Source: a virus
Length of the DNA stretch: 50,447 nucleotides
Virus record (IMG/VR): IMGVR_UViG_3300046484_000036
Span: 1-50,447 of that record
Strand: one strand, 5' to 3'
In this document: piece by piece, positions 3,283 through 50,447 of the stretch
Position numbering within the stretch: position 1 is the stretch's first letter
How the letters are laid out: every line of letters starts with the position of its first letter
Translations under genes and position numbers: made by a program
Notes under the pieces: generated by a model
Databases searched by the model: none
Told to the model about the DNA's origin: nothing
Seen by the model: only the letters and a program-made list of their open reading frames with translations

Positions 3283-3783
3283 TTACTGATTGGTAAACGC
3301 GTCTGCGAATGCGGTGGCCTTGGCTTCGTCGTAGGCTTTCCACGCGGGGGCCTTGGCTTCGTCGTAGGCTTTCCACGCGGGGGCCTTGGCTTCGTCGTAG
3401 GCTTTCCACGCGGTGGCCGTGGCTTCGTCGTAGGCTTTCCACGCGGGGGCCTTGGCTTCGTCGTAGGCTTTCCACGCGGTGGCCTTGGCTTCGTCGTAGG
3501 CTTTCCACGCGGGGGCCTTGGCTTCGTCGTAGGCTTTCCACGCGGTGGCCGTGGCTTCGTCGTAGGCTTTCCACGCGGTGGCCGTGGCTTCGTCGTAGGC
3601 TTTCCACGCGGGGGCCGTGAGCAAGTGGCCTGCTGCCCAACCCCAATCAAAAACGGAGGCATGTTTGAGGCACAGCTCGCGGGTCGGGGTTATCGAGGAG
3701 TTTCCGAAAAGTTCGGAGAACTTGGCTACTTGCGCAGAGCACGCGTCTAGGCGTTTTAGGGTTTTTAGGGATATGGCTTTCAT
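3283..3783 (-). CDS. Hendecad-repeat protein C (57-aa N-terminal domain plus about 9.5 x AWKAYDEA(K/T)A(P/T))
   Basis: 166 aa. This is the only frame leaving the array into unique sequence (MKAISLKTLKRLDACSAQVAKFSELFGNSSITPTRELCLKHASVFDWGWAAGHLL). The N-terminal pattern L..L.AC...C...W.W resembles protein B. Confidence 0.75.
   Translation of the reverse strand: MKAISLKTLKRLDACSAQVAKFSELFGNSSITPTRELCLKHASVFDWGWAAGHLLTAPAWKAYDEATATAWKAYDEATATAWKAYDEAKAPAWKAYDEAKATAWKAYDEAKAPAWKAYDEATATAWKAYDEAKAPAWKAYDEAKAPAWKAYDEAKATAFADAFTNQ
3311..3618. repeat. 33-bp tandem repeat array C (9 full units from 3322 plus a leading partial unit)
   Basis: Unit is ggcttcgtcgtaggctttccacgcg(g/t)gggcc(t/g)t. Units are identical except at two biallelic positions. 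Confidence 0.95.
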
Positions 3784-38281: not shown

Positions 38282-38587
38282 TCAACTATAAAATTCTTCC
38301 CGCCCACCTTTAACCGCGAGTGGCAGTCCGTCAGCCCAGGGGGGCATCTGTACCATGCACTGCTTGAGCAGTTCGTCCCCTCTACGGTTCGGATCGCGGG
38401 CGAGCATTTGATCGTGTGCCAGTATCTCGGGCTCGAATCCTTCAGCCGTGGCGCGAATCAACCCGTAAGCTATTACGTCCGCCCCGATGCCCTGACAGCA
38501 GTTGGAAACCAGCATTGGTATGCCCGTCTTCCCTCGCACGAGAAACCGGTGTTTAGGCCCAGCGTTTTTTAGATCGTACACTTTCAT
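38282..38587 (-). CDS. DNA polymerase (family A) C-terminal fragment: 29-aa C-intein plus 72-aa C-extein
   Basis: Internal ATG at 38587 (ATGA overlap with the endonuclease stop). MKVYDLKNAGPKHRFLVRGKTGIPMLVSN|CCQGIGADVIAYGLIRATAEGFEPEILAHDQML shows intein blocks F/G ending in Asn, a +1 Cys, then the Q-G-x-x-A-D region and the motif C-like HD. Confidence 0.8.
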   Translation of the reverse strand: MKVYDLKNAGPKHRFLVRGKTGIPMLVSNCCQGIGADVIAYGLIRATAEGFEPEILAHDQMLARDPNRRGDELLKQCMVQMPPWADGLPLAVKGGREEFYS

Positions 38588-39473
38588 CGTTTGAATTTGT
38601 TCGCTAAATTTGGGGTATCGAAAAGGTGGCGACGGGGCACTTTGGCGTATATCCGGTACCACAAAGTTTGTACTCGTATACCACTTGCTCTTGACGCCTG
38701 AGAGACAGTTAGCCGACCCCACGGGGTAATCAGAAAATAGTTATTCCTACAGTTGTTTGCTTGGATTCTACGTGTGGCCCATCGGCAATTACTTTTAGTG
38801 TAGTTCCCGTTGTTATCCTCCCTATCGAGGGAAAGACCGGCCCTATATGTACCGCCCATGTCGGCCCAAAAATTCTCGAATTTACCCCACCGTCTACATA
38901 CTCGTATGCCTCTACCGCCATAGCCACTCCAAGCGTGGTGACTAGGTAGCCGACACCTATCTGTCATAGCCCTCCACACAGTATACCCAGGATGAGAGGA
39001 CATACCGTGTTTGGTGTTCTTAGCCCCTATAAGTTTATTTCGGAGACAGCCGCAACTCTGATACGTCCCGCGTTTCAGTTCTCTCCCGTCTACCACTTTG
39101 GTTTTTCCACAACTGCATAGGCAGTTCCACAGTGACCGGCCATCTTTATCGTTTCCGGCGTCCGCTATCACAGTGAGTGTGAAGAACTTTTGTCCTAATA
39201 GATCTAATCTAGGTTTCGGCACGACTGGTATCCTCGTTTAGCCACATCCGTAGGGCAAGCTTTTTTGGCGGGTAAATCCTCGATCAATCCAAAGACCTTA
39301 TGCTCCGGCGTTAAGTGGACCCCGTTCAGTTCTATGGTGGCCTGCTCACCTTGAAAAAGTAGACCTTCGTGCGACACCCATTTCTCACCGTCCCAAACTC
39401 TATCTGAGGTATCCACTGTTTCGATACGTTTCCAGCCTTTGTCGGTGAGAACCTCAGTACCCTCGCCAATGCA
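38501..39473 (-). mobile_element. Split intein (N-half 39207-39473, C-half 38501-38587) with its intervening endonuclease gene
   Basis: Cys1 codon tgc at 39473-39471 follows ...GGKLLEN. Block A is CIGEGTEVLTDKGWKRIETV. Block B is GVHLTPEHKVF. The C-half ends ...MLVSN, followed by Cys. Confidence 0.75.
38584..39222 (-). CDS. Free-standing Cys-rich endonuclease-like protein inside the split-intein locus (candidate homing endonuclease)
   Basis: 212 aa. Zn-ribbon-like CLCSCGKTKVV...SCGC, then HGMSSHPGYTVWRAMTDRC...YGGRGIRVCRRW...LSLDREDNNGNYTKSNCRWAT. This pattern is often annotated as phage HNH-type endonuclease (family assignment from memory only). Confidence 0.6.
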   Translation of the reverse strand: MPKPRLDLLGQKFFTLTVIADAGNDKDGRSLWNCLCSCGKTKVVDGRELKRGTYQSCGCLRNKLIGAKNTKHGMSSHPGYTVWRAMTDRCRLPSHHAWSGYGGRGIRVCRRWGKFENFWADMGGTYRAGLSLDREDNNGNYTKSNCRWATRRIQANNCRNNYFLITPWGRLTVSQASRASGIRVQTLWYRIYAKVPRRHLFDTPNLANKFKR

Positions 39474-41258
39474 GTTCTCCAGCAGCTTGCCGCCATATGT
39501 AGGGATGCGACCGAAGAAGGATTTGCCAGGGATCTGACCCCAGAAGGAAAGTTCGTCGGTAAAGTCCCCGAAGGACTCTTTGAAGATGTGTTTAATTTCT
39601 GGATACGGATAGACAATGCCCCGCCCTGAGGGCAGTTTCATCACGAGATATGGGATGCCTGAAATGGTCTGGACGATAAAGCGAAGGCGTTTTGCCGTGA
39701 ACCACTGACCGGGGCAGCGTACCGCATCTTTCGCGGCGCGGTCGATCTGGTTCCAGCTCTCCTTCACTTTACCGAATCGAAGACGAAAAGCGGCTATGCC
39801 CGCCTTCGATGCCTCTAAGGTCACGACCATCTTATATGTCTCGGTAAGCATGGTGAAAAACTTGTCTCCACCGACCTGATACTGCCCGGCCAAAATAGAT
39901 TGCTTCCCAAGCATGTAATCCGGCGACTTGTCTTTTATGCCCTCCGCCTTGGTTCGGCAAATGCCTGCCGCCATATTGCGGTACACGTCCACTCCGTCAG
40001 CAAAGTCCTTCAGGATGTCGTCCTGGTGGCAGACCCAACAACATATACGAGCTTCTTCCGCTGAGTAATCATAGTCCCAGAATGGGCCACGGATAAACCG
40101 GCGTATCAGCTTGGCGGCAAGCTCGGAGGGTCCGCCGAACAGCGTCGGGAACGCCTCCAGGTCGAAAGTGGGGTTCTGGAAATAGTCGTACACGTCATCC
40201 GGCACTTTCTCCGCCCCATTGTTCTTCTTGAAGTTCTGAGGCTGCACGGCACGCCCCGACCAGCGCCCGCTCCGGGCACCGTAGAATTGGAATACCCCAT
40301 GCACACGCCCATCAGCGCACGCCATAGCGCGCATAGAGGTCACCTTTTTTGCCGCTGAGTATTGGAGTTGTGAATACAAGCGCAGCAGTTCAGCCGGTTC
40401 GCCGGTAGCCGTTTTGAGGGTTTCCGCTACCGTGTCGGCAGTCATGTCCGGTAAGTCCAACCCCAGTTCTTTTAACTTCCCTTTTACGGCATCCCGTTGA
40501 GTAGGGTTGCATTTTGCACGAGAAAAAAACTCTTCCCGCAATCCGGCTGTCTCGGCTTCGATCAACCTGGAAGCGGTCTCCAGCGCGGGCAGGTCAACTG
40601 CAAACCCCCGCAGGTTCATCAGCCAGTCTGCCTGAAACGCCGCCAGCAGATCGCCCTTAAACTCGAAAGGCTTGAGGCGGGCGTGCGCTTCCTGCTCTGC
40701 GAGTACGTCTGTCCGGTTGTAGGAAACGAAATCCAGCCACTTATCGGGCTCGTCCTTCGGATATACCCGGCGTGCGGGCTGTGGGGCTTCCCCGCGTTTC
40801 TTTCGCGGGGTGTAGGGCATACAGAACAGCTTGATAAGCGCGCTGCCCTTGGCGTCCTTCTTGTTCTTCAGGTCTAGAGCGTCGGAGAGCTTGGCCAGCG
40901 AGTCCGGCAGCGCGGCCCGGCGCGCCAGGGCTTGCGTACAGCGCCACTGATGAGGCTGCGGCGGCGGGAGTCCAAGGTCTTTCAGCGCCCGTGCATTCGT
41001 GATGAACGCCTCGAACATAAAACTGAAGGCATAGATGATGCTCTCAGGGTTAGTGAACGCCTCGGTTAGCAGTTCTACCGCTTTCGGATCAGCCGGGTGG
41101 CCGGTCACACGCGGGTTCTCCCAGACGAAGACTATGCCGTCGTCGCCAGCAATCGCGGCGAGCAGGATCTCGGTAGACGGATCTTCCGCATACCGGGCCG
41201 CGCCGACCTCCTCAAGGTCAGCTTCAGAGAACGTCTCGTAATCGAGGGAGAAGATCAT
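39204..41258 (-). CDS. DNA polymerase (family A) N-terminal fragment: 3'-5' exonuclease, palm/fingers through motif B, plus 89-aa N-intein
   Basis: Exo I MIFSLDYETFSE. Motif A-like WDYDYSAEEARI. Motif B-like LGKQSILAGQYQVGG. It then switches at GGKLLEN to the intein sequence and stops. Confidence 0.85.
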   Translation of the reverse strand: MIFSLDYETFSEADLEEVGAARYAEDPSTEILLAAIAGDDGIVFVWENPRVTGHPADPKAVELLTEAFTNPESIIYAFSFMFEAFITNARALKDLGLPPPQPHQWRCTQALARRAALPDSLAKLSDALDLKNKKDAKGSALIKLFCMPYTPRKKRGEAPQPARRVYPKDEPDKWLDFVSYNRTDVLAEQEAHARLKPFEFKGDLLAAFQADWLMNLRGFAVDLPALETASRLIEAETAGLREEFFSRAKCNPTQRDAVKGKLKELGLDLPDMTADTVAETLKTATGEPAELLRLYSQLQYSAAKKVTSMRAMACADGRVHGVFQFYGARSGRWSGRAVQPQNFKKNNGAEKVPDDVYDYFQNPTFDLEAFPTLFGGPSELAAKLIRRFIRGPFWDYDYSAEEARICCWVCHQDDILKDFADGVDVYRNMAAGICRTKAEGIKDKSPDYMLGKQSILAGQYQVGGDKFFTMLTETYKMVVTLEASKAGIAAFRLRFGKVKESWNQIDRAAKDAVRCPGQWFTAKRLRFIVQTISGIPYLVMKLPSGRGIVYPYPEIKHIFKESFGDFTDELSFWGQIPGKSFFGRIPTYGGKLLENCIGEGTEVLTDKGWKRIETVDTSDRVWDGEKWVSHEGLLFQGEQATIELNGVHLTPEHKVFGLIEDLPAKKACPTDVAKRGYQSCRNLD

Positions 41259-41572: not shown

Positions 41573-42448
41573 TTATGCTTTCGGGTCGCGAATAGTGATA
41601 TCCGCCTTGTTGGGCGAAGCAAAGAGGTCGTCCTGCGCCTGCTTGATGCGTTCGACTGCTTGGGCGAAGTGGCGCGGGTCTTTCTCTATGCCGATGAATG
41701 TCCGGCCTGCCCGCACGCACGCAATGCCGGTTGACCCGCTGCCCATGAACGGATCAAGAACCCCTTCTTTAGTCGTGGCCTCCAGCACGTTGCTCGGCAG
41801 CGCCACCGGGAATGGTGCGGGGTGCTGATTTCTCTCTGGCGTCATGCGCCACACGTCACCAAGCCCGCTCACGCCTTTTGATTTCAGGCGGAAGGCTGGC
41901 TTTGCCAGCAGCATTATCCATTCGTGCGTGGGCACGAATGCCGTGGGGTTATAGTTTATCCCACCCGGACGCGCCCACACGATGATTTGGCGCAGCACCA
42001 CGGGCCCCGGAATCAATTCGAGCGGAGTCCAGAGCTTCGCGCCGATTACGCGAGGCTTATGGTTATAGAAAATCGCTCCGTCATCTGGCAGTCTATCCCA
42101 CAACATACCGAGCAGTGAGTGCTGCCATGCTACATAGTCAGCCCACGGCATCGAATCATCATGCATTCCATACTGTATTCCAGCCCCAGCATCCGATCCG
42201 TTTTTCCACTTGCTTTTCCCGCCGGCGGAATTACCCGGCTTCCAGTTTCCTAGGTGTGGCCACGGCTCACCTCCCTTGTTGTACGGCGGTGAGGTTATGA
42301 CCAGCCCGAACCTATCGAGCGTCGGTATTATATCCATGCAGTCCGCATTGTAGAGCGTGCAGTTACCGGACACCCAACCAGGCGCCACAGCACAATGACC
42401 ATGCACGGACGTTTCTGCGAGAGCTGGAGTCGGGGAGAGCATGGTCAT
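41573..42448 (-). CDS. DNA methyltransferase (beta-class amino-MTase, N4-C or N6-A)
   Basis: Motif IV VITSPPYNKGG precedes motif I DPFMGSGSTGIAC. No cognate restriction gene is seen. Confidence 0.85.
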   Translation of the reverse strand: MTMLSPTPALAETSVHGHCAVAPGWVSGNCTLYNADCMDIIPTLDRFGLVITSPPYNKGGEPWPHLGNWKPGNSAGGKSKWKNGSDAGAGIQYGMHDDSMPWADYVAWQHSLLGMLWDRLPDDGAIFYNHKPRVIGAKLWTPLELIPGPVVLRQIIVWARPGGINYNPTAFVPTHEWIMLLAKPAFRLKSKGVSGLGDVWRMTPERNQHPAPFPVALPSNVLEATTKEGVLDPFMGSGSTGIACVRAGRTFIGIEKDPRHFAQAVERIKQAQDDLFASPNKADITIRDPKA

Positions 42449-42627
42449 GGCTGATCTGTTTTGATTGAGTCATTCATGGTGTGTGTCGCCTATCGAGTTA
42501 GACGAAAAATACCCCCATGCCGCCGTGGTAATTATACCGTTACATTTTCACTACGGACGCTGCCCCTTTGCAGGGCTGGCCATGTGCTCGGGCGTCAGCC
42601 GTAACGGCGTGGAGGTATAGGTGTTGG

Positions 42628-42846
42628 TTAGCCCTGATTGGACTCCAGATCGTTGATCTGTTTCGTCAGGTCGTTGATCTCAGATTTGAGACCGCCAATC
42701 TCGTCCTCTCGTTCGGAGATGGTGCCCTTGGCTTCGGTAAGTTCAGAGTCCAGTTGTTCGATGATGGCGACAAGATTACTTACGTGATCCAAACTTTGTG
42801 CCGCCTCGATCTCTTTGTCCTGGGCGGCAGTGGTATTATCGTACAT
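42628..42846 (-). CDS. Small coiled-coil protein (72 aa)
   Basis: Heptad-rich. The C-terminal SEINDLTKQINDLESN resembles ENDNLAQQIDELKN of 49908..50138. Confidence 0.5.
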   Translation of the reverse strand: MYDNTTAAQDKEIEAAQSLDHVSNLVAIIEQLDSELTEAKGTISEREDEIGGLKSEINDLTKQINDLESNQG

Positions 42847-42895
42847 AAAAAGGGTACCTCAGATTACGCACTGAGGCGCTGCGGATTGGTGTTAG

Positions 42896-43489
42896 TTAGT
42901 CGAGTACGCTTGTGTCAGCCGGGACTTCGGAGAAGTCATCAGCAGACGCCTTCGCGGCTTTAGTGAACGTCGGGCCGACCTTCACAAGCTGGCAGCCAAG
43001 AAAGGTCGCGTTGATGCGACGGCCCCAGGAGGCGTCGAACTTGGCGTTGAGCTTCGGATCTTGCACCCAAATGTCCAGAAGGACATTATAGAAATATCCA
43101 CTTTGGATGCGATCCTGGTCTTCCACGGTGAGTTGGACCTTCTGCTGGTCGTATATAGCCGGAGCCGTTTTGTTTGTCGAAGGCACAAACATAACCTCGG
43201 GACCGTAGCCATCCATGGCGCTGCCATCGTCTTTCTCGTAGTCAGACCCCTCTCTCAAACAGGATTTGAAATCCTTCGGGATCGTTTTGCCCTTAGCGGT
43301 GTACGTTTCCGCTAGGAGCTTCTTGATGGTCTCTTCGACCAACTTGATGTCCGCCGCGTTGTTCTTTTTAGACAGTATCGAGGTGAACCTAAATTTAAGA
43401 ACCGCTTTCGACGGGTCTTTTTCGCCACCAGCTGTAGGGGTAAAGCAAGCCAGGAACGAACCTCTGACGTTAGACAATTTACATTTCAT
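42896..43489 (-). CDS. Phage ssDNA-binding protein (DUF2815-like)
   Basis: MKCKLSNVRGSFLACFTP N-terminus and acidic C-terminal tail DDFSEVPADTSVLD. It sits between the DUF2800-like nuclease and the polymerase, as in the known DUF2800-DUF2815-PolA module. Confidence 0.6.
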   Translation of the reverse strand: MKCKLSNVRGSFLACFTPTAGGEKDPSKAVLKFRFTSILSKKNNAADIKLVEETIKKLLAETYTAKGKTIPKDFKSCLREGSDYEKDDGSAMDGYGPEVMFVPSTNKTAPAIYDQQKVQLTVEDQDRIQSGYFYNVLLDIWVQDPKLNAKFDASWGRRINATFLGCQLVKVGPTFTKAAKASADDFSEVPADTSVLD

Positions 43490-46211: not shown

Positions 46212-48836
46212 TCATAGGGAAAGTAATGCACCTCGCTCGTCCAACGTGCTGCCGTTCAACCGGCTGCGGGCGGCGTCCTGCGCGTCACCTTTGAACTTAG
46301 TGAGGTGCGTCCAAAGGGTATGACGGGTTTGCGAGGTCTTGTCGTTGCCCAAGCGTATCCTAGCGTTGGATACGAAACCCATCTCGCGCAGAACAGCGGA
46401 GAGACCCTGGTCGGAGAAGAAGCCGATGCCGCGCTGGGTCTCCAGCAGTGAGTGCAGGCTCTTTAGGCTTACGAGGTCGGGCTGTACGAGGGGATGGTCG
46501 CCGTCCTCCAGGGCTTCACGGATGGCGGCGGCGAGGGGGGAAGCCGACGCGCCGAGCATCTGGAGCAGGTAGTCCGTGACCGGGGCATGGCCGTCCGCAT
46601 CGAACGCGGCGCTGATCTTACGGTTCTCAAGGAAGTGACGCACGCCCGCAGCTTTGTTGAACACGACGTCATACACTTTTTTGTAATACGCAGCGGGGAT
46701 CGCCTGCACCTGCTCGCGGGTCTGTAGTGCTGAGAACAGTACGAAGTAGCGGCGCTCGTCCTCGCTCGGGGCGATGGCGTCCTGATGGTTGGTGAGTAAC
46801 AAATAGTTCGTCGTGTTGGGCTCCTCCACTGCTTCCGTGTTCATCCGGCGTACCGTAATGCGGTCATTCGAGATGCGGGGTTTAAGCATGTTCATCACCT
46901 GATGCCGTGCCGTTCCAATCACTCGGATCTCCTCCACGCACGCGAGCTGACTGCCGGAACTCCAGCCGGTGAACTTATCGAAGAGAGTCGCACCGTCCAC
47001 GAGCTTGACGTTGGTGGGGCCGAGCACCTGGCGCATCATCTCAGCGAACACCGTCTTGCCGCAACCCTGCGCGCCCTGGAGCAGTGGTGCCCAGCGGATC
47101 TTCTTGCCGGGTTGCTGAACCAAGCAACAGCACCAATCGAGGAAGAGTGAGCGGTTCTCTGGTTCAACGATTAACTTATCCAGATGCGTCGATATGACAT
47201 CCTCCGCTTCTGCGGCTAATGCGGGATCGGCTTCGGGATATAATGGGCGATAAGTATTCAAATACCGTTTGCCTGCATCGAGGAGGTATACCTCGTGCGG
47301 ATTTGCTGGGTCATATCTATAACCGTCTACGCGGGGAATGCGCAGGATGTTCAGCAGGAAGTCCTGAGGACGAGTGGCAGGTTTGCCGCTGTCTCCCGGT
47401 TCTTTCTCGCCAACGCCCATAAGTCTCACGCCGTACATGCTGTCCAGCACGTTGGGCGCGAACTGCCGACCACTGGCACGCACGAAAAATTCATTCTCAC
47501 TTGCTACATAGGTCATGCCGCGTGCCCACGGGGGGAGCTGACTATCCGGGAGCGGAGCAACCTTGGCGTCGGGGTCAAAGCCGAGACGAGCTTCCAGCTT
47601 CTTTAATTTGGTCTTGAGGTCCGCTAGCGAGACTCCCATCCCAAGCGCGGTCAGAGATTTCCCTAGATGCTTCAACAATACAAGCCGCTCTAATGGGTCC
47701 AATAAGGGCGCGGAAGCAATGAGCTTCATGCCCTCCCTCATTAGTTCTGCCGACGAGTGATCCCCTTGAATCCACGCTAGTACAGATCGGAAGGTCTTCT
47801 GAGTGAGCACGATGGGCGACATCCCGCCTTCGACGGCGAGATGGAATAGGGAGCGGAGAGTCACGGGGGCTCTGGATGTAGGGTTGGGCACTAGCGATTT
47901 CCACTTGGCCTGCGTTTCCTCCTGCCCAGTATACTTGCTGCCTCCGCTGCTCCATTTGTCAAATGCCTCAAAGGCTGCATGGTCCTCCTCAGAACTTCCG
48001 CTAAACTGGTGGCGGAGAGCCGCAGCTACACTTAACCATGCGGCGTAACCAATATCCGGCGAAATAAATCCGAGGGCGTTTTGGACTTCTGCCAGGGTAA
48101 TATTGCTCATGCGAGGCGTCAAAAAGTCCAACGGATCACCAGATGCCACGGCTCCCGTTTTGCGGGGGCTGACTGAAACGACGCCCCCCGGTGAAACGTC
48201 GGTCGTAACTGGTTCCCCCTCTTCCTCGACGATCAAAAGCGGGGAGTGTATGGCCTCGTCTTCCCCTGCGAATAACACAGGTAAAAACATTGCCTGACAA
48301 CAGGTTAGGCTTTCTGGAGTGACCGCCTTCAACCCCAGTCGGGAGGCGATGTATTTCACTGCGTCTTTATACCCTTCCGGCGGTATCCGGTGAGCGGATA
48401 CGACGATGCGGGCACGTGGAGCCGCCTCAGTCGATGACGCCGTGGTATACATCAAGAATGGGTGCGGAGACAAAGCCGAGCGGAGTAGCTCTGGGTTCGC
48501 CACAAACGGCGCGGCGTCGTGGGCGTCGTCTATATCTATCGCAACCAAATCGCACGCCTCTACGTTTTCCAGGCGGCGCTCCGTAATGCCCGGTTTAAGT
48601 GAACAGGGCACAAAAAAGGGCGTCCTTTTCACCTTGTCCCTGTCCGCTTTCGCAAGTGCAGCATACTGTAATCTCGTGGTGTTTAACAAAACAGACTGGC
48701 CGAAAACTTCCCGGCAAAGTGTGCGCCAATCTTTGGCGGCAAGGGGTTTCACCTTACCCAAATTGCTGGCTTCACCGCCAAAATAGGTACCTGAAATTAG
48801 TTCTGGCATATAGTTACTTACGTTTGAATTCACCAA
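46212..48836 (-). CDS. Primase-helicase (N-terminal prim-pol-like domain plus VirE/D5-type P-loop NTPase)
   Basis: 874 aa. Acidic motif LVAIDIDDAHD, Walker A LLQGAQGCGKTVF, Walker B-like LACVEEI. Confidence 0.8.
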   Translation of the reverse strand: MVNSNVSNYMPELISGTYFGGEASNLGKVKPLAAKDWRTLCREVFGQSVLLNTTRLQYAALAKADRDKVKRTPFFVPCSLKPGITERRLENVEACDLVAIDIDDAHDAAPFVANPELLRSALSPHPFLMYTTASSTEAAPRARIVVSAHRIPPEGYKDAVKYIASRLGLKAVTPESLTCCQAMFLPVLFAGEDEAIHSPLLIVEEEGEPVTTDVSPGGVVSVSPRKTGAVASGDPLDFLTPRMSNITLAEVQNALGFISPDIGYAAWLSVAAALRHQFSGSSEEDHAAFEAFDKWSSGGSKYTGQEETQAKWKSLVPNPTSRAPVTLRSLFHLAVEGGMSPIVLTQKTFRSVLAWIQGDHSSAELMREGMKLIASAPLLDPLERLVLLKHLGKSLTALGMGVSLADLKTKLKKLEARLGFDPDAKVAPLPDSQLPPWARGMTYVASENEFFVRASGRQFAPNVLDSMYGVRLMGVGEKEPGDSGKPATRPQDFLLNILRIPRVDGYRYDPANPHEVYLLDAGKRYLNTYRPLYPEADPALAAEAEDVISTHLDKLIVEPENRSLFLDWCCCLVQQPGKKIRWAPLLQGAQGCGKTVFAEMMRQVLGPTNVKLVDGATLFDKFTGWSSGSQLACVEEIRVIGTARHQVMNMLKPRISNDRITVRRMNTEAVEEPNTTNYLLLTNHQDAIAPSEDERRYFVLFSALQTREQVQAIPAAYYKKVYDVVFNKAAGVRHFLENRKISAAFDADGHAPVTDYLLQMLGASASPLAAAIREALEDGDHPLVQPDLVSLKSLHSLLETQRGIGFFSDQGLSAVLREMGFVSNARIRLGNDKTSQTRHTLWTHLTKFKGDAQDAARSRLNGSTLDERGALLSL

Positions 48837-49308
48837 AAATTTCTGTGGCTTTTGCCTCGTAGACCGCGCTTGCGGCTTCGGGGGTGGGGAAGCATCCTAG
48901 ATACTTAGTTACCCCGCGGACTGATATTTGCGCCTGCCACTTCTTTACCCTTCTGTGCCAGACTACTCCCCGGAAATGTGAAGTATTATCTTTGGGGAGT
49001 TTTACATTGCTGGAGTTCTGGTGTGCCGTAGCCTCCCGAAGGTTTGCTATTCGGTTATCCAACCCGTTCCCGTTTATGTGGTCGATCTGGTCTTTTGGCC
49101 ATGTGCCGTGGGTGTATAGCCAAGCTAGTCGATGCGCCTGATATTTACGTCCGTATATAGATATTATGCGGTAGCCTCGATGATTATTAGTCCCAGCTAT
49201 GTCTCCTGGGGGCATATTACGCGATAGAGCCTCCAGCCAAATAAATACACCTGTAAGCGGATTGTAATGCAAGTACTCCTGAAGTTCGGCTTGTGTTAGT
49301 GGGATCAT
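48814..49308 (-). CDS. HNH endonuclease with AP2-type DNA-binding domain
   Basis: IDHINGNGLDNRIANLREATAHQN (HNH) and FRGVVWHRRVKKWQAQISVRGVTKYLGCFPTPEAASAVYEAKATEIFGEF (AP2). Confidence 0.9.
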   Translation of the reverse strand: MIPLTQAELQEYLHYNPLTGVFIWLEALSRNMPPGDIAGTNNHRGYRIISIYGRKYQAHRLAWLYTHGTWPKDQIDHINGNGLDNRIANLREATAHQNSSNVKLPKDNTSHFRGVVWHRRVKKWQAQISVRGVTKYLGCFPTPEAASAVYEAKATEIFGEFKRK

Positions 49309-50140: not shown

Positions 50141-50447
50141 TCAGTCCTCCGTCCCGGTTAGCTTCTTCCCATTCCAGGCACAGTCTGGCATGACTGTTTT
50201 TATATACGCCAGTACCTCGGCGTCCAGCGCGTCACGCTTGGCCTGCCAGTCGGCGTCCAGCGGGGCACGCTTAGCCAGGTAGTCGGCGTCCAGCGGGGCA
50301 CGCTTAGCCAGGTAGTCGGCGTCCAGCGGGGCACGCTTAGCCTGCCAGTCGGCGTCCAGCGTGCCCCGCTTAGCCTGCCAGTCGGCGTCCAGCGTGCCCC
50401 GCTTAGCCTGCCAGTCGGCGTCCAGCGCGTCACGCTTGGCCTGCCAG
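50141..50447 (-). CDS. Hendecad-repeat protein A, C-terminal part (continuation of the gene starting at 575)
   Basis: In the repeat frame, the hand translation ends ...LDADWQAKRDALDAEVLAYIKTVMPDCAWNGKKLTGTED with TGA at 50143-50141. The frame matches that of 1..575 under either a direct join or a 36-nt overlap. The tail YIKTVMPD resembles EIFPVMPQ of protein B. Confidence 0.7.
   Translation of the reverse strand, partial: WQAKRDALDADWQAKRGTLDADWQAKRGTLDADWQAKRAPLDADYLAKRAPLDADYLAKRAPLDADWQAKRDALDAEVLAYIKTVMPDCAWNGKKLTGTED
50214..50447. repeat. 33-bp tandem repeat array A, right part (7 units plus 3 nt)
   Basis: Units start at 50214, 50247 ... 50412. The last 36 nt (50412-50447) are identical to positions 1-36. 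Confidence 0.95.

Follow-up and report, generated by a model that had tools for sequence, protein, structure and literature searches.

A phage family A DNA polymerase gene in two halves: a probable fractured gene with split-intein segments around an endonuclease-like gene

Fractured genes, in which two co-oriented open reading frames (ORFs) at one locus, the first ending in the N-terminal part of an intein (IntN) and the second starting with its C-terminal part (IntC), enclose a free-standing endonuclease gene, were described by Dassa, London, Stoddard, Schueler-Furman and Pietrokovski in 2009 (PMC2677866), whose survey is the source of the gp41-1, NrdJ-1 and IMPDH-1 split inteins. The hosts in that survey were genes for the gp41 helicase, DnaE, NrdA/NrdJ, IMPDH, terminase and ligase, and the endonucleases were of the GIY-YIG or Vsr-like types, with the remark that HNH enzymes "could" fracture genes offered as a possibility only. 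An RNA hairpin lay 5' of the endonuclease ORF in 15 of the 16 5' untranslated regions examined, and the 3' end of the endonuclease gene overlapped the start of the downstream half in 15 loci (PMC2677866). Here we analyze a DNA polymerase locus at positions 38,282 to 41,258 of a viral DNA of 50,447 nucleotides (nt), positions 1 to 50,447 of IMG/VR record IMGVR_UViG_3300046484_000036, the whole of which is called the window. An original prediction made from the letters alone had proposed that this polymerase gene is broken by a split intein with a free-standing endonuclease gene between the halves, and had likened the layout to the fractured genes reported from metagenome fragments by Dassa et al., which agrees with their paper. 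Like those genes, the locus has an IntN-ending half followed by an IntC-starting half with an endonuclease-like gene between them, a break at the canonical endonuclease insertion point, a 3' overlap of the middle gene with the downstream half (here a 4-nt ATGA) and a setting in phage-like metagenomic DNA. It departs from them in that the host is a family A DNA polymerase, the endonuclease carries an HNH label with no Pfam model, and the IntC is shorter, at 29 amino acids (aa). This is probably a genuine fractured gene of the type of Dassa et al.: a 973-base pair (bp) element in a phage family A polymerase, for which trans-splicing and homing are inferred.

Inteins of the same family occur in GenBank phages, and the APSE polymerase intein has already been mentioned in the literature. 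When the middle protein was searched with tblastn against GenBank phages, the best matches were Hamiltonella phages APSE-1 to -7, Shewanella phage SFCi1 and four Caulobacter phages (RW, GB2A, RLK and KcrB), and in these the match always fell inside the annotated DNA polymerase gene. The 993-aa P45 of APSE-1 reads GGKS↓CLAKGTLVLT..WDG..TADH....EVYDLINCGPRNRF..IVHN↓CEN (arrows mark the intein-extein junctions), placing it in the same intein family, and a 222-codon homologue of the middle gene lies in frame +1, its 3' part being annotated as P46, "HNH endonuclease"; the polymerase of Caulobacter phage RW is built as in APSE-1. These phages share with the window the blocks C..G..VLT..GW, WDG, T..DH and VYDL.NCGPRNRF...HN↓C, the same polymerase family and conserved segment, and an endonuclease family, 45–48% identical, lying between the splicing blocks in a different frame. 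In contrast to the window, their inteins are contiguous, with the polymerase frame open through the nested gene to give precursors of 961–994 aa. The APSE insertion (GGKS↓C...HN↓CEN) lies three residues upstream of that in the window (GGKLLEN↓C...SN↓C), i.e., at a neighboring and not an allelic site, and the endonuclease frame relative to IntN is +1 in the APSE-type phages but +2 in the window, where the polymerase frames are closed by stops. The window element is a split relative of the APSE-1 polymerase intein.

Natural split inteins in replicative DNA polymerases are otherwise represented by Nanoarchaeum equitans PolB (NEQ068/NEQ528), whose C-part is short at about 30 aa, and by cyanobacterial DnaE. 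Here the two halves come from loci far apart, without an endonuclease gene in between; the polymerases belong to families B and C, and the inteins are only remotely similar in sequence to that of the window. The DnaE split inteins have an acidic IntN and a basic IntC (PMC2677866), a pattern also seen in the window. Some actinobacteriophage inteins contain homing endonuclease genes (Vsr-like, endonuclease VII-like and antisense LAGLIDADG) that are out of frame with them, which has been attributed to the invasion of inteins by endonuclease genes that once stood alone, split inteins being among the outcomes expected (bioRxiv 10.1101/2025.01.02.630785). The window resembles these inteins in that the endonuclease frame differs from that of intein and extein, whereas its endonuclease type and host are others and it displays the split rather than the overlapping contiguous outcome. 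Finally, the HNH gene mobE splits nrdA of Aeh1 and a GIY-YIG gene splits gp43 of T4-like phages (PMC2677866). There, too, a free-standing endonuclease gene interrupts a gene essential for replication, the two halves of which stay adjacent, but intein halves are lacking and function is restored by non-covalent assembly. An intein-less exo/pol split was reported as the first split PolA by Czernecki et al. (2023), and no split-intein family A polymerase was found in the literature searched, which covered few subscription journals. Thus, what is new relative to the known systems is the host gene, the endonuclease family in a fractured layout, and a compact split intein related to the APSE intein.

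The minus strand carries three consecutive ORFs, each in a different frame, as judged from the ORF list and a reading of the sequence (Table 1), and the JGI gene calls on the contig agree (N-half, P0001, 684 aa; C-half, P0169, 101 aa). The N-half polymerase opens with an ATG and comprises 595 extein residues, ending ..TYGGKLLEN, and 89 intein residues; the middle ORF of 212 aa opens with a GTG and overlaps the N-half by 19 nt (39222..39204); and the C-half of 29 intein and 72 extein residues starts from an internal ATG that shares the ATGA with the TGA stop of the middle ORF. The peptides thus follow one another as GGKLLEN↓CIGEGTEV.., TPEH and MKVYDL..MLVSN↓CCQGIGAD. The original prediction had named these features, i.e., an N-half with DYETFSE, DYSAEEARI and motif B KQSILAGQYQVGG, the 19-nt overlap and ATGA coupling of a 212-aa middle ORF, a C-half ATG at 38587 with blocks F/G, a terminal Asn and CCQGIGADV, and a split intein of 89 + 29 aa, and every one was recovered at its coordinates. 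For the N-half, the matches are to PHROG_17 "DNA polymerase" (2.2e-49) and to Pfam DNA_pol_A (E 7.6e-07; 28.8 bits, short of the 34.3-bit gathering cut-off). The C-half aligns with the C-termini of three polymerase families in PHROG (PHROG_7766, PHROG_10285 and PHROG_17). As had been proposed, the polymerase motifs are divided between two polypeptides: the 3'-5' exonuclease motif, motif A and motif B lie on the N-half and the HD motif (LAHDQ) on the C-half.

Alleles that lack the insert define the junction. A spliced product was built in silico by joining residues 1–595 to those after ..MLVSN, which gives 667 aa. A database search with it recovered seven uninterrupted homologues of 82–87% identity, all exactly 667 aa long, and an eighth of 79% identity that reaches 695 aa owing to an N-terminal extension. 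The alignment is free of gaps across the junction, which reads ..GGKLLEN↓ACQGIAADV.., or more generally ..LEN↓(A/F)CQG.., in the uninterrupted proteins, the +1 residue being Cys in the window versus Ala or Phe in the empty alleles. The insertion site falls in the conserved segment ..GGKLxEN↓xxQGxAAD.., just before motif C. Thus, the insertion point is exact, not one residue is lost relative to the uninterrupted homologues, and the predicted spliced junction KLLEN-CCQGIGAD does restore the family pattern. A 50-kilobase (kb) syntenic contig (L003) of about 80% DNA identity has an empty site and carries one of the uninterrupted homologues; relative to it, the insert of the window is exactly 973 nt (39473..38501), between codons 595 and 596. 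This combination of an exact 667-aa length match with a 973-nt empty-site insert is far beyond chance. The nearest cultured relatives, the polymerases of SPO2- and Chi-type phages, are at about 31–32% identity, and a megablast of the 4 kb around the locus against GenBank phages gave no match.

The segments that flank the middle gene bear the marks of a splicing domain. IntN has Cys1, a block A of CIGEGTEVLT, WDG and a block B of TPEH, its last ~17 residues forming a poorly conserved tail that runs into the start of the middle gene. Both nucleophiles, Cys1 (CIGEG..) and Cys+1 (N↓CCQG), sit exactly at the junction defined by the homologues; in the family alignment C1, T55, H58, D94, N118 and C+1 are conserved, with T55, H58 and N118 invariant. 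A family profile, which drew on polymerases with contiguous inserts sharing the conserved intein blocks, matched only inteins among the PDB sequences, namely NEQ068, the N-part of the Neq Pol split intein (6e-5), the Spl DnaX mini-intein (7e-3) and the Mtu RecA mini-intein (0.03). An AlphaFold2 (AF2) model of fused IntN and IntC, based on a 38-row alignment, has a pLDDT of 89.8 and a pTM of 0.81, the uncertainty being confined to the IntN tail (residues ~61–90), and all of its top 35 Foldseek matches in the PDB are inteins or HINT domains (TMq 0.74 for Mtu RecA, 0.70 for Npu DnaE and 0.65 for gp41-1; also NrdJ-1 and AceL NrdHF). The two flanking segments are thus modeled to form a HINT domain, and their reading as intein segments is supported by profile, fold and conserved catalytic residues. 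Contiguous mini-inteins of the family have only 110 aa (P0122, CLAENTRV..LIAHN) and 107 aa (P0126), from which it follows that 89 + 29 aa suffice for a complete splicing domain. To our knowledge, these are shorter than any characterized intein (about 123–134 aa).

Two further loci, on unrelated contig lineages, repeat the arrangement. The first, L001 (48 kb), was found on 7 contigs from several samples and has the same three-gene layout: an N-half (P0063, 682 aa) that ends inside the intein, a middle gene (216 aa, MAKPRL..) homologous to that of the window, and, again with an ATGA overlap, a C-half (102 aa) reading MRVYDIVNAGPRHRF..LLVSN↓CTQ..; its polymerase is only 38–43% identical to that of the window. 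The second, L049 from IMG/VR, is built alike, and all three loci share the ATGA overlap, a C-half starting M-(K/R)-VYD and the ending VSN↓C. The position of the middle-gene start (M-P/A-K-P-R-L) is also conserved, with ATG in L001 and L049 versus GTG in the window. Identity among the three is 49–58% for IntN, 48–52% for the endonuclease and 66–69% for IntC, but only 28–43% for the exteins; the element is thus more conserved than the polymerases that host it, which fits horizontal spread of the whole unit. The net charges of IntN and IntC are -6/+5 in the window (39258-39473 and 38501-38587), -12/+5 in L001 and -9/+4 in L049, whereas five contiguous relatives, with -1 to -5 in the N-part and -2 to +2 in the C-part, have no such contrast. 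A basic character is not evident in the remaining split IntC sequences of the database, and the acidic-basic pairing may be specific to the sub-clade of these three.

Table 1. Features of the polymerase locus, with coordinates in the window
Feature	Coordinates	Strand	Evidence
N-half polymerase ORF, 684 aa, ATG start	39204..41258	-	ORF list, sequence reading
N-extein, family A DNA polymerase, 595 aa	39474..41258	-	ORF list; PHROG_17, Pfam DNA_pol_A; colinear with 667-aa homologues
IntN, 89 aa	39207..39473	-	Family alignment; profile match to Neq Pol; AF2 HINT fold
TAG stop of N-half, 16-18 nt inside middle gene	39204..39206	-	Sequence reading
GAGGA Shine-Dalgarno-like motif, 8 nt 5' of middle-gene GTG	39231..39235	-	Sequence reading
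Putative free-standing homing endonuclease gene, 212 aa, GTG start	38584..39222	-	PHROG_374; AF2 model
C-half ORF, 101 aa, internal ATG at 38587 to stop at 38282	38282..38587	-	ORF list, sequence reading
IntC, 29 aa, MKVYDLKNAGPKHRFLVRGKTGIPMLVSN; blocks F/G, terminal Asn	38501..38587	-	ORF list, sequence, IntC profile
C-extein, 72 aa and stop; +1 Cys (CCQGIGADV..), motif C-like LAHDQ	38282..38500	-	PHROG_7766/10285/17; alignment to uninterrupted homologues

The intein family to which the element belongs is encoded at no fewer than 495 loci in IMG/VR, i.e., at least that many. The copies were classified in the best 80 of these (L004–L083), with APSE-1 (L084, 957-3938) and Caulobacter phage RW (L085, 996-3878) set beside them. 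Among 86 intein copies in the 80 loci, 32 are mini-inteins (330–549 nt), 20 are contiguous with an endonuclease-family ORF in frame +1 and 27 with one in frame +2, 3 are fractured, 4 are cut by a contig end, and none is contiguous with the endonuclease in frame. The out-of-frame homologue of the middle gene is thus present in 47/47 contiguous long inteins, with the polymerase frame staying open for ~200 codons across it. The Arg/Gly/Pro-rich "linkers" of P0025, P0062 and P0068 probably arise because an endonuclease gene is being read in the wrong frame. Contiguous inserts occupy the site of the window in these same three proteins and a motif B site in P0084, P0111 and P0115. Split copies are common as well: dozens of short database proteins start M-x-VYD..NCGPRNRF..HN↓C and run on into the polymerase C-terminus, the polymerase from motif B on, or the C-domain of an SNF2-type helicase, and an IntC-only profile matches at least 2000 representative proteins, many with IntC beginning at residues 3–20. 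The fractured form was seen in none of the GenBank phages in the collection. Window and L001 differ from the contiguous relatives of the +1 class by a one-nucleotide frame offset 5' of the endonuclease start, and their polymerase frames have long decayed; the fracture may either follow an overlapping state or have arisen directly on invasion, as Dassa et al. envisage.

Several other arrangements were encountered within the family. A group of proteins of ~190–230 aa (P0142, P0143, P0145, P0153, P0158, P0161, P0163, P0167 and P0177) combine a short IntC with an SNF2-type helicase C-terminal domain (PF00271), and their composition suggests helicase genes split by the same intein family. In a further set (P0123, P0124 and P0125; P0302-P0307 and P0313; L006 2730-4411), some polymerases are in more than two pieces, with middle fragments that have an N-terminal IntC and a C-terminal IntN, and other proteins combine a split IntC start (HN↓S) with one or two more contiguous inteins of the family. 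The insertions fall at no fewer than three sites: TGRF↓C, LG↓C and EN↓C.

The middle protein matches PHROG_374 "HNH endonuclease" (6e-61) and belongs to a very populous family, 7988/8000 scored candidates being at E <= 1e-5 and all of these unnamed or "hypothetical". The family alignment displays four invariant Cys in a zinc-ribbon-like arrangement in the N-domain, an invariant YGGRGI segment in a helical domain, and an HNH-like beta-beta-alpha motif (LDREDNNGNY..NCRWAT..QANN in the window; LDRxDNxGNYxPxNCRWATxxEQxxN in the family), with a helix-turn-helix at the C-terminus. The AF2 model (pLDDT 93) has a strand-strand-helix unit at 131–155 followed by the helix-turn-helix, DSSP assigning strands to 131–134 and 146–149 and a helix to 151–155. 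The sole solved relative by sequence is the HNH homing endonuclease I-HmuI, matched over the motif at E 0.42 with the single sequence and 0.043 with the profile, and in BFVD the model resembles numerous phage proteins annotated as putative HNH/HTH homing endonuclease or AP2-domain protein. The Asn residues of the motif are well kept, N145 being invariant and N157 at least 90% conserved. An idea that the IntN tail is a relic of a zinc-ribbon unit was not adopted: the tail ..AKRGYQSCRNLD (39204-39260), with its KRGYQSCRNLD, resembles the endonuclease segment KRGTYQSCGCLRN (39025-39075), both on the minus strand, but 44/2000 shuffles reach the score, neither L001 nor L049 has the similarity, and RNLD simply comes from reading the first codons of the endonuclease gene in another frame. 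The resemblance is due either to chance or to an old duplication of the unit.

A scheme for the expression and movement of the unit can be drawn from these parts. The 973-bp element, presumably mobile, lies between the codons of Asn595 and Cys596 and consists of IntN coding sequence, endonuclease-like gene and IntC coding sequence in three frames. The three ORFs would probably be transcribed together as part of the replication operon. The whole window is free of Rfam families above threshold, sites resembling promoters or terminators stay within what shuffles give, and neither internal start has a stable hairpin; a single transcript is the simplest reading. Translation of the N-half would end 19 nt into the middle gene, that of the middle gene would start from GAGGA-N8-GTG, and the C-half would probably be reinitiated at the ATGA, the overlap of its ATG with the stop of the middle gene suggesting termination-reinitiation coupling. 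Acidic IntN and basic IntC would then associate into a class 1 HINT domain and trans-splice the exteins of 595 and 72 aa into a 667-aa polymerase with a Cys left at 596, while the middle protein would cut intein-less alleles of related phages at co-infection, repair copying in the three-part unit.

A number of observations weigh against this scheme. The penultimate intein residue is Ser and not the usual His. No Hint or intein family came up in single-sequence Pfam and NCBIfam scans, whether with either polymerase half, with IntN fused to IntC, with a mini-intein that is contiguous or with three contiguous polymerases, apart from a weak match to the RtcB intein (E 0.005); the Hint similarity on which the original prediction had staked itself thus fails in these scans and stands in the family profile and the fold comparison. 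The C-half start has no recognizable Shine-Dalgarno sequence. The upstream RNA hairpin of the genes of Dassa et al. is missing in the window, folding of the 91 nt around the endonuclease start giving z-scores of +0.6 (window), +0.5 (L001) and -0.4 (L049). The middle protein has no Pfam or NCBIfam match, its model has no Foldseek match in the PDB below E 1e-3, and Arg134, invariant in 44 family members, aligns with the catalytic His of I-HmuI. Furthermore, trans-splicing, association of the halves, nuclease activity and homing are steps that we infer from sequence.

The alternative that fares best, though still unlikely, takes the middle ORF to be a DNA-binding protein, whether a regulator, a domesticated protein or an inactive relic, in which case the element would no longer be mobile. 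The invariant Arg in place of the general-base His of HNH enzymes, the failed domain and fold searches just mentioned, and the helix-turn-helix domains of the homologues are in its favor. BLASTP finds no similarity of the middle ORF to the canonical HNH_3-AP2 endonuclease encoded elsewhere in the window, so the PHROG label "HNH" is not transferable through that gene. Against this alternative, the ORF is intact and 48–52% conserved over three fractured loci with polymerases that are 28–43% identical; in at least 47 related inteins a member of its family occupies the canonical site of endonuclease insertion; there are thousands of free-standing phage copies, a distribution that is that of a selfish mobile gene; and the conservation of Arg134, Asn145 and Asn157 suggests that these residues belong to an active or binding site that has been kept. 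With the general-base His replaced by Arg134, the middle protein is called HNH-like, a putative nuclease, rather than being filed as an HNH enzyme. Thus, of the 212-aa endonuclease-like ORF that had been predicted, the separate gene with its own frame and Shine-Dalgarno motif stands, whereas as an endonuclease it is a candidate.

It is more doubtful still that the fragments act as a non-covalent heterodimer, with the intein halves serving only as a high-affinity association module and splicing absent or rare. Split phage enzymes that work without splicing (Aeh1 NrdA, T4-like gp43 and the exo/pol-split PolA) lend this some precedent, as does the Ser at the penultimate position. However, the Ser-Asn ending recurs in L001, L049 and several contiguous members of the family, and these contiguous members must splice to give a working polymerase. 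Moreover, all the nucleophiles and the Thr and His of block B are kept, Cys stands at +1 in place of the Ala or Phe of uninterrupted relatives, and the break falls inside a conserved active-site segment.

That the polymerase gene is a decaying pseudogene broken by a mobile element, with the phage replicating by another polymerase, is very improbable: the gene is indeed physically interrupted, but both exteins are full length, colinear and 82–87% identical to intact homologues without frameshift or stop, and three lineages retain both the start codon of IntC and its ATGA overlap. No other DNA polymerase occurs among the replication-module genes scanned (primase-helicase, exonuclease, SSB and SNF2 helicase), the rest of the window not being annotated. 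Even less credible is that sequencing or assembly indels broke one continuous gene with an in-frame endonuclease domain. Two indels in a contig from a metagenome assembly would give three adjacent ORFs in three frames; against this, the insert has 12 stops in the IntN frame and 21 in the IntC frame, so that no pair of indels could restore a single ORF, and its 973 nt are not a multiple of 3. The layout is repeated in L001, with its several samples, and in L049, the contig has other long genes, of up to 1571 aa, without any disruption, and the endonuclease ORF is never in the intein frame in the 47 contiguous relatives. The frameshift artefact that the original prediction had named as a possible refutation is thereby effectively refuted. 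Programmed -1 frameshifting through the three ORFs was likewise rejected, there being no slippery heptamer at either junction and many stops in the polymerase frames. A group I or II intron with an endonuclease ORF, removed at the RNA level, has next to no probability: frequent as such introns are in phage polymerase genes, no Rfam family is found and the ORF-flanking sequence encodes a HINT domain with Cys1 and Asn/Cys+1 exactly at the junction.

Beyond the fractured gene itself, a few features of the contig may be recorded. A second, unrelated free-standing homing endonuclease gene (48814-49308, minus strand; Pfam HNH_3 2e-16, weak AP2, PHROG_99) shares 23 nt with the start of the primase-helicase gene (46212-48836). 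The stretch from the SSB-like gene to the polymerase (41573-42954 in the window, 3813-5648 in L003) is not conserved between the window and the otherwise syntenic L003, and in the window it holds a DNA methyltransferase gene (41573-42448; PHROG_67 4e-57). Four arrays of 33-nt tandem repeats lie at 2-357, 2279-2471, 3311-3616 and 50217-50447; the end arrays are copies of each other, for which reason the assembly probably broke inside a repeat array, and the contig may represent a complete, circularly permuted genome.

These findings have consequences for annotation and for application. Standard domain libraries miss a widespread intein family and its endonuclease, and the affected polymerases are labeled "partial" or appear over-long with a spurious linker. 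In practical terms, the locus offers a small natural split intein of about 72–89 aa + 29 aa with a Cys/Cys junction, a C-part short enough for peptide synthesis, and hundreds of natural variants for orthogonal pairs. Moreover, since a single element is represented by alleles of the empty-site, contiguous-overlapping and fractured kinds, the model of gene breaking put forward by Dassa et al. can be tested directly.

A broader reading, which we put forward tentatively and hold at somewhat less than even, is that the window represents, in split form, a very large family of inteins that Pfam and NCBIfam do not see and that has hardly been described as a family. If so, the homing endonuclease would never be fused in frame, being either overprinted in the contiguous intein or free-standing between its halves; the fractured state would be a stable, horizontally spreading and translationally coupled unit rather than a stage of decay; the family would hold the smallest natural splicing domains known to us (contiguous ones of 107–110 aa and IntC of 25–29 aa); and the endonuclease would be a new catalytic variant of the HNH fold with Arg for the general-base His. 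At the level of the phage, if the halves splice, an essential replicase would be assembled post-translationally from two genes, with the production of one half apparently tied to the translation of a selfish endonuclease gene—in that case, a compact natural example of the entrenchment of mobile elements in essential genes.

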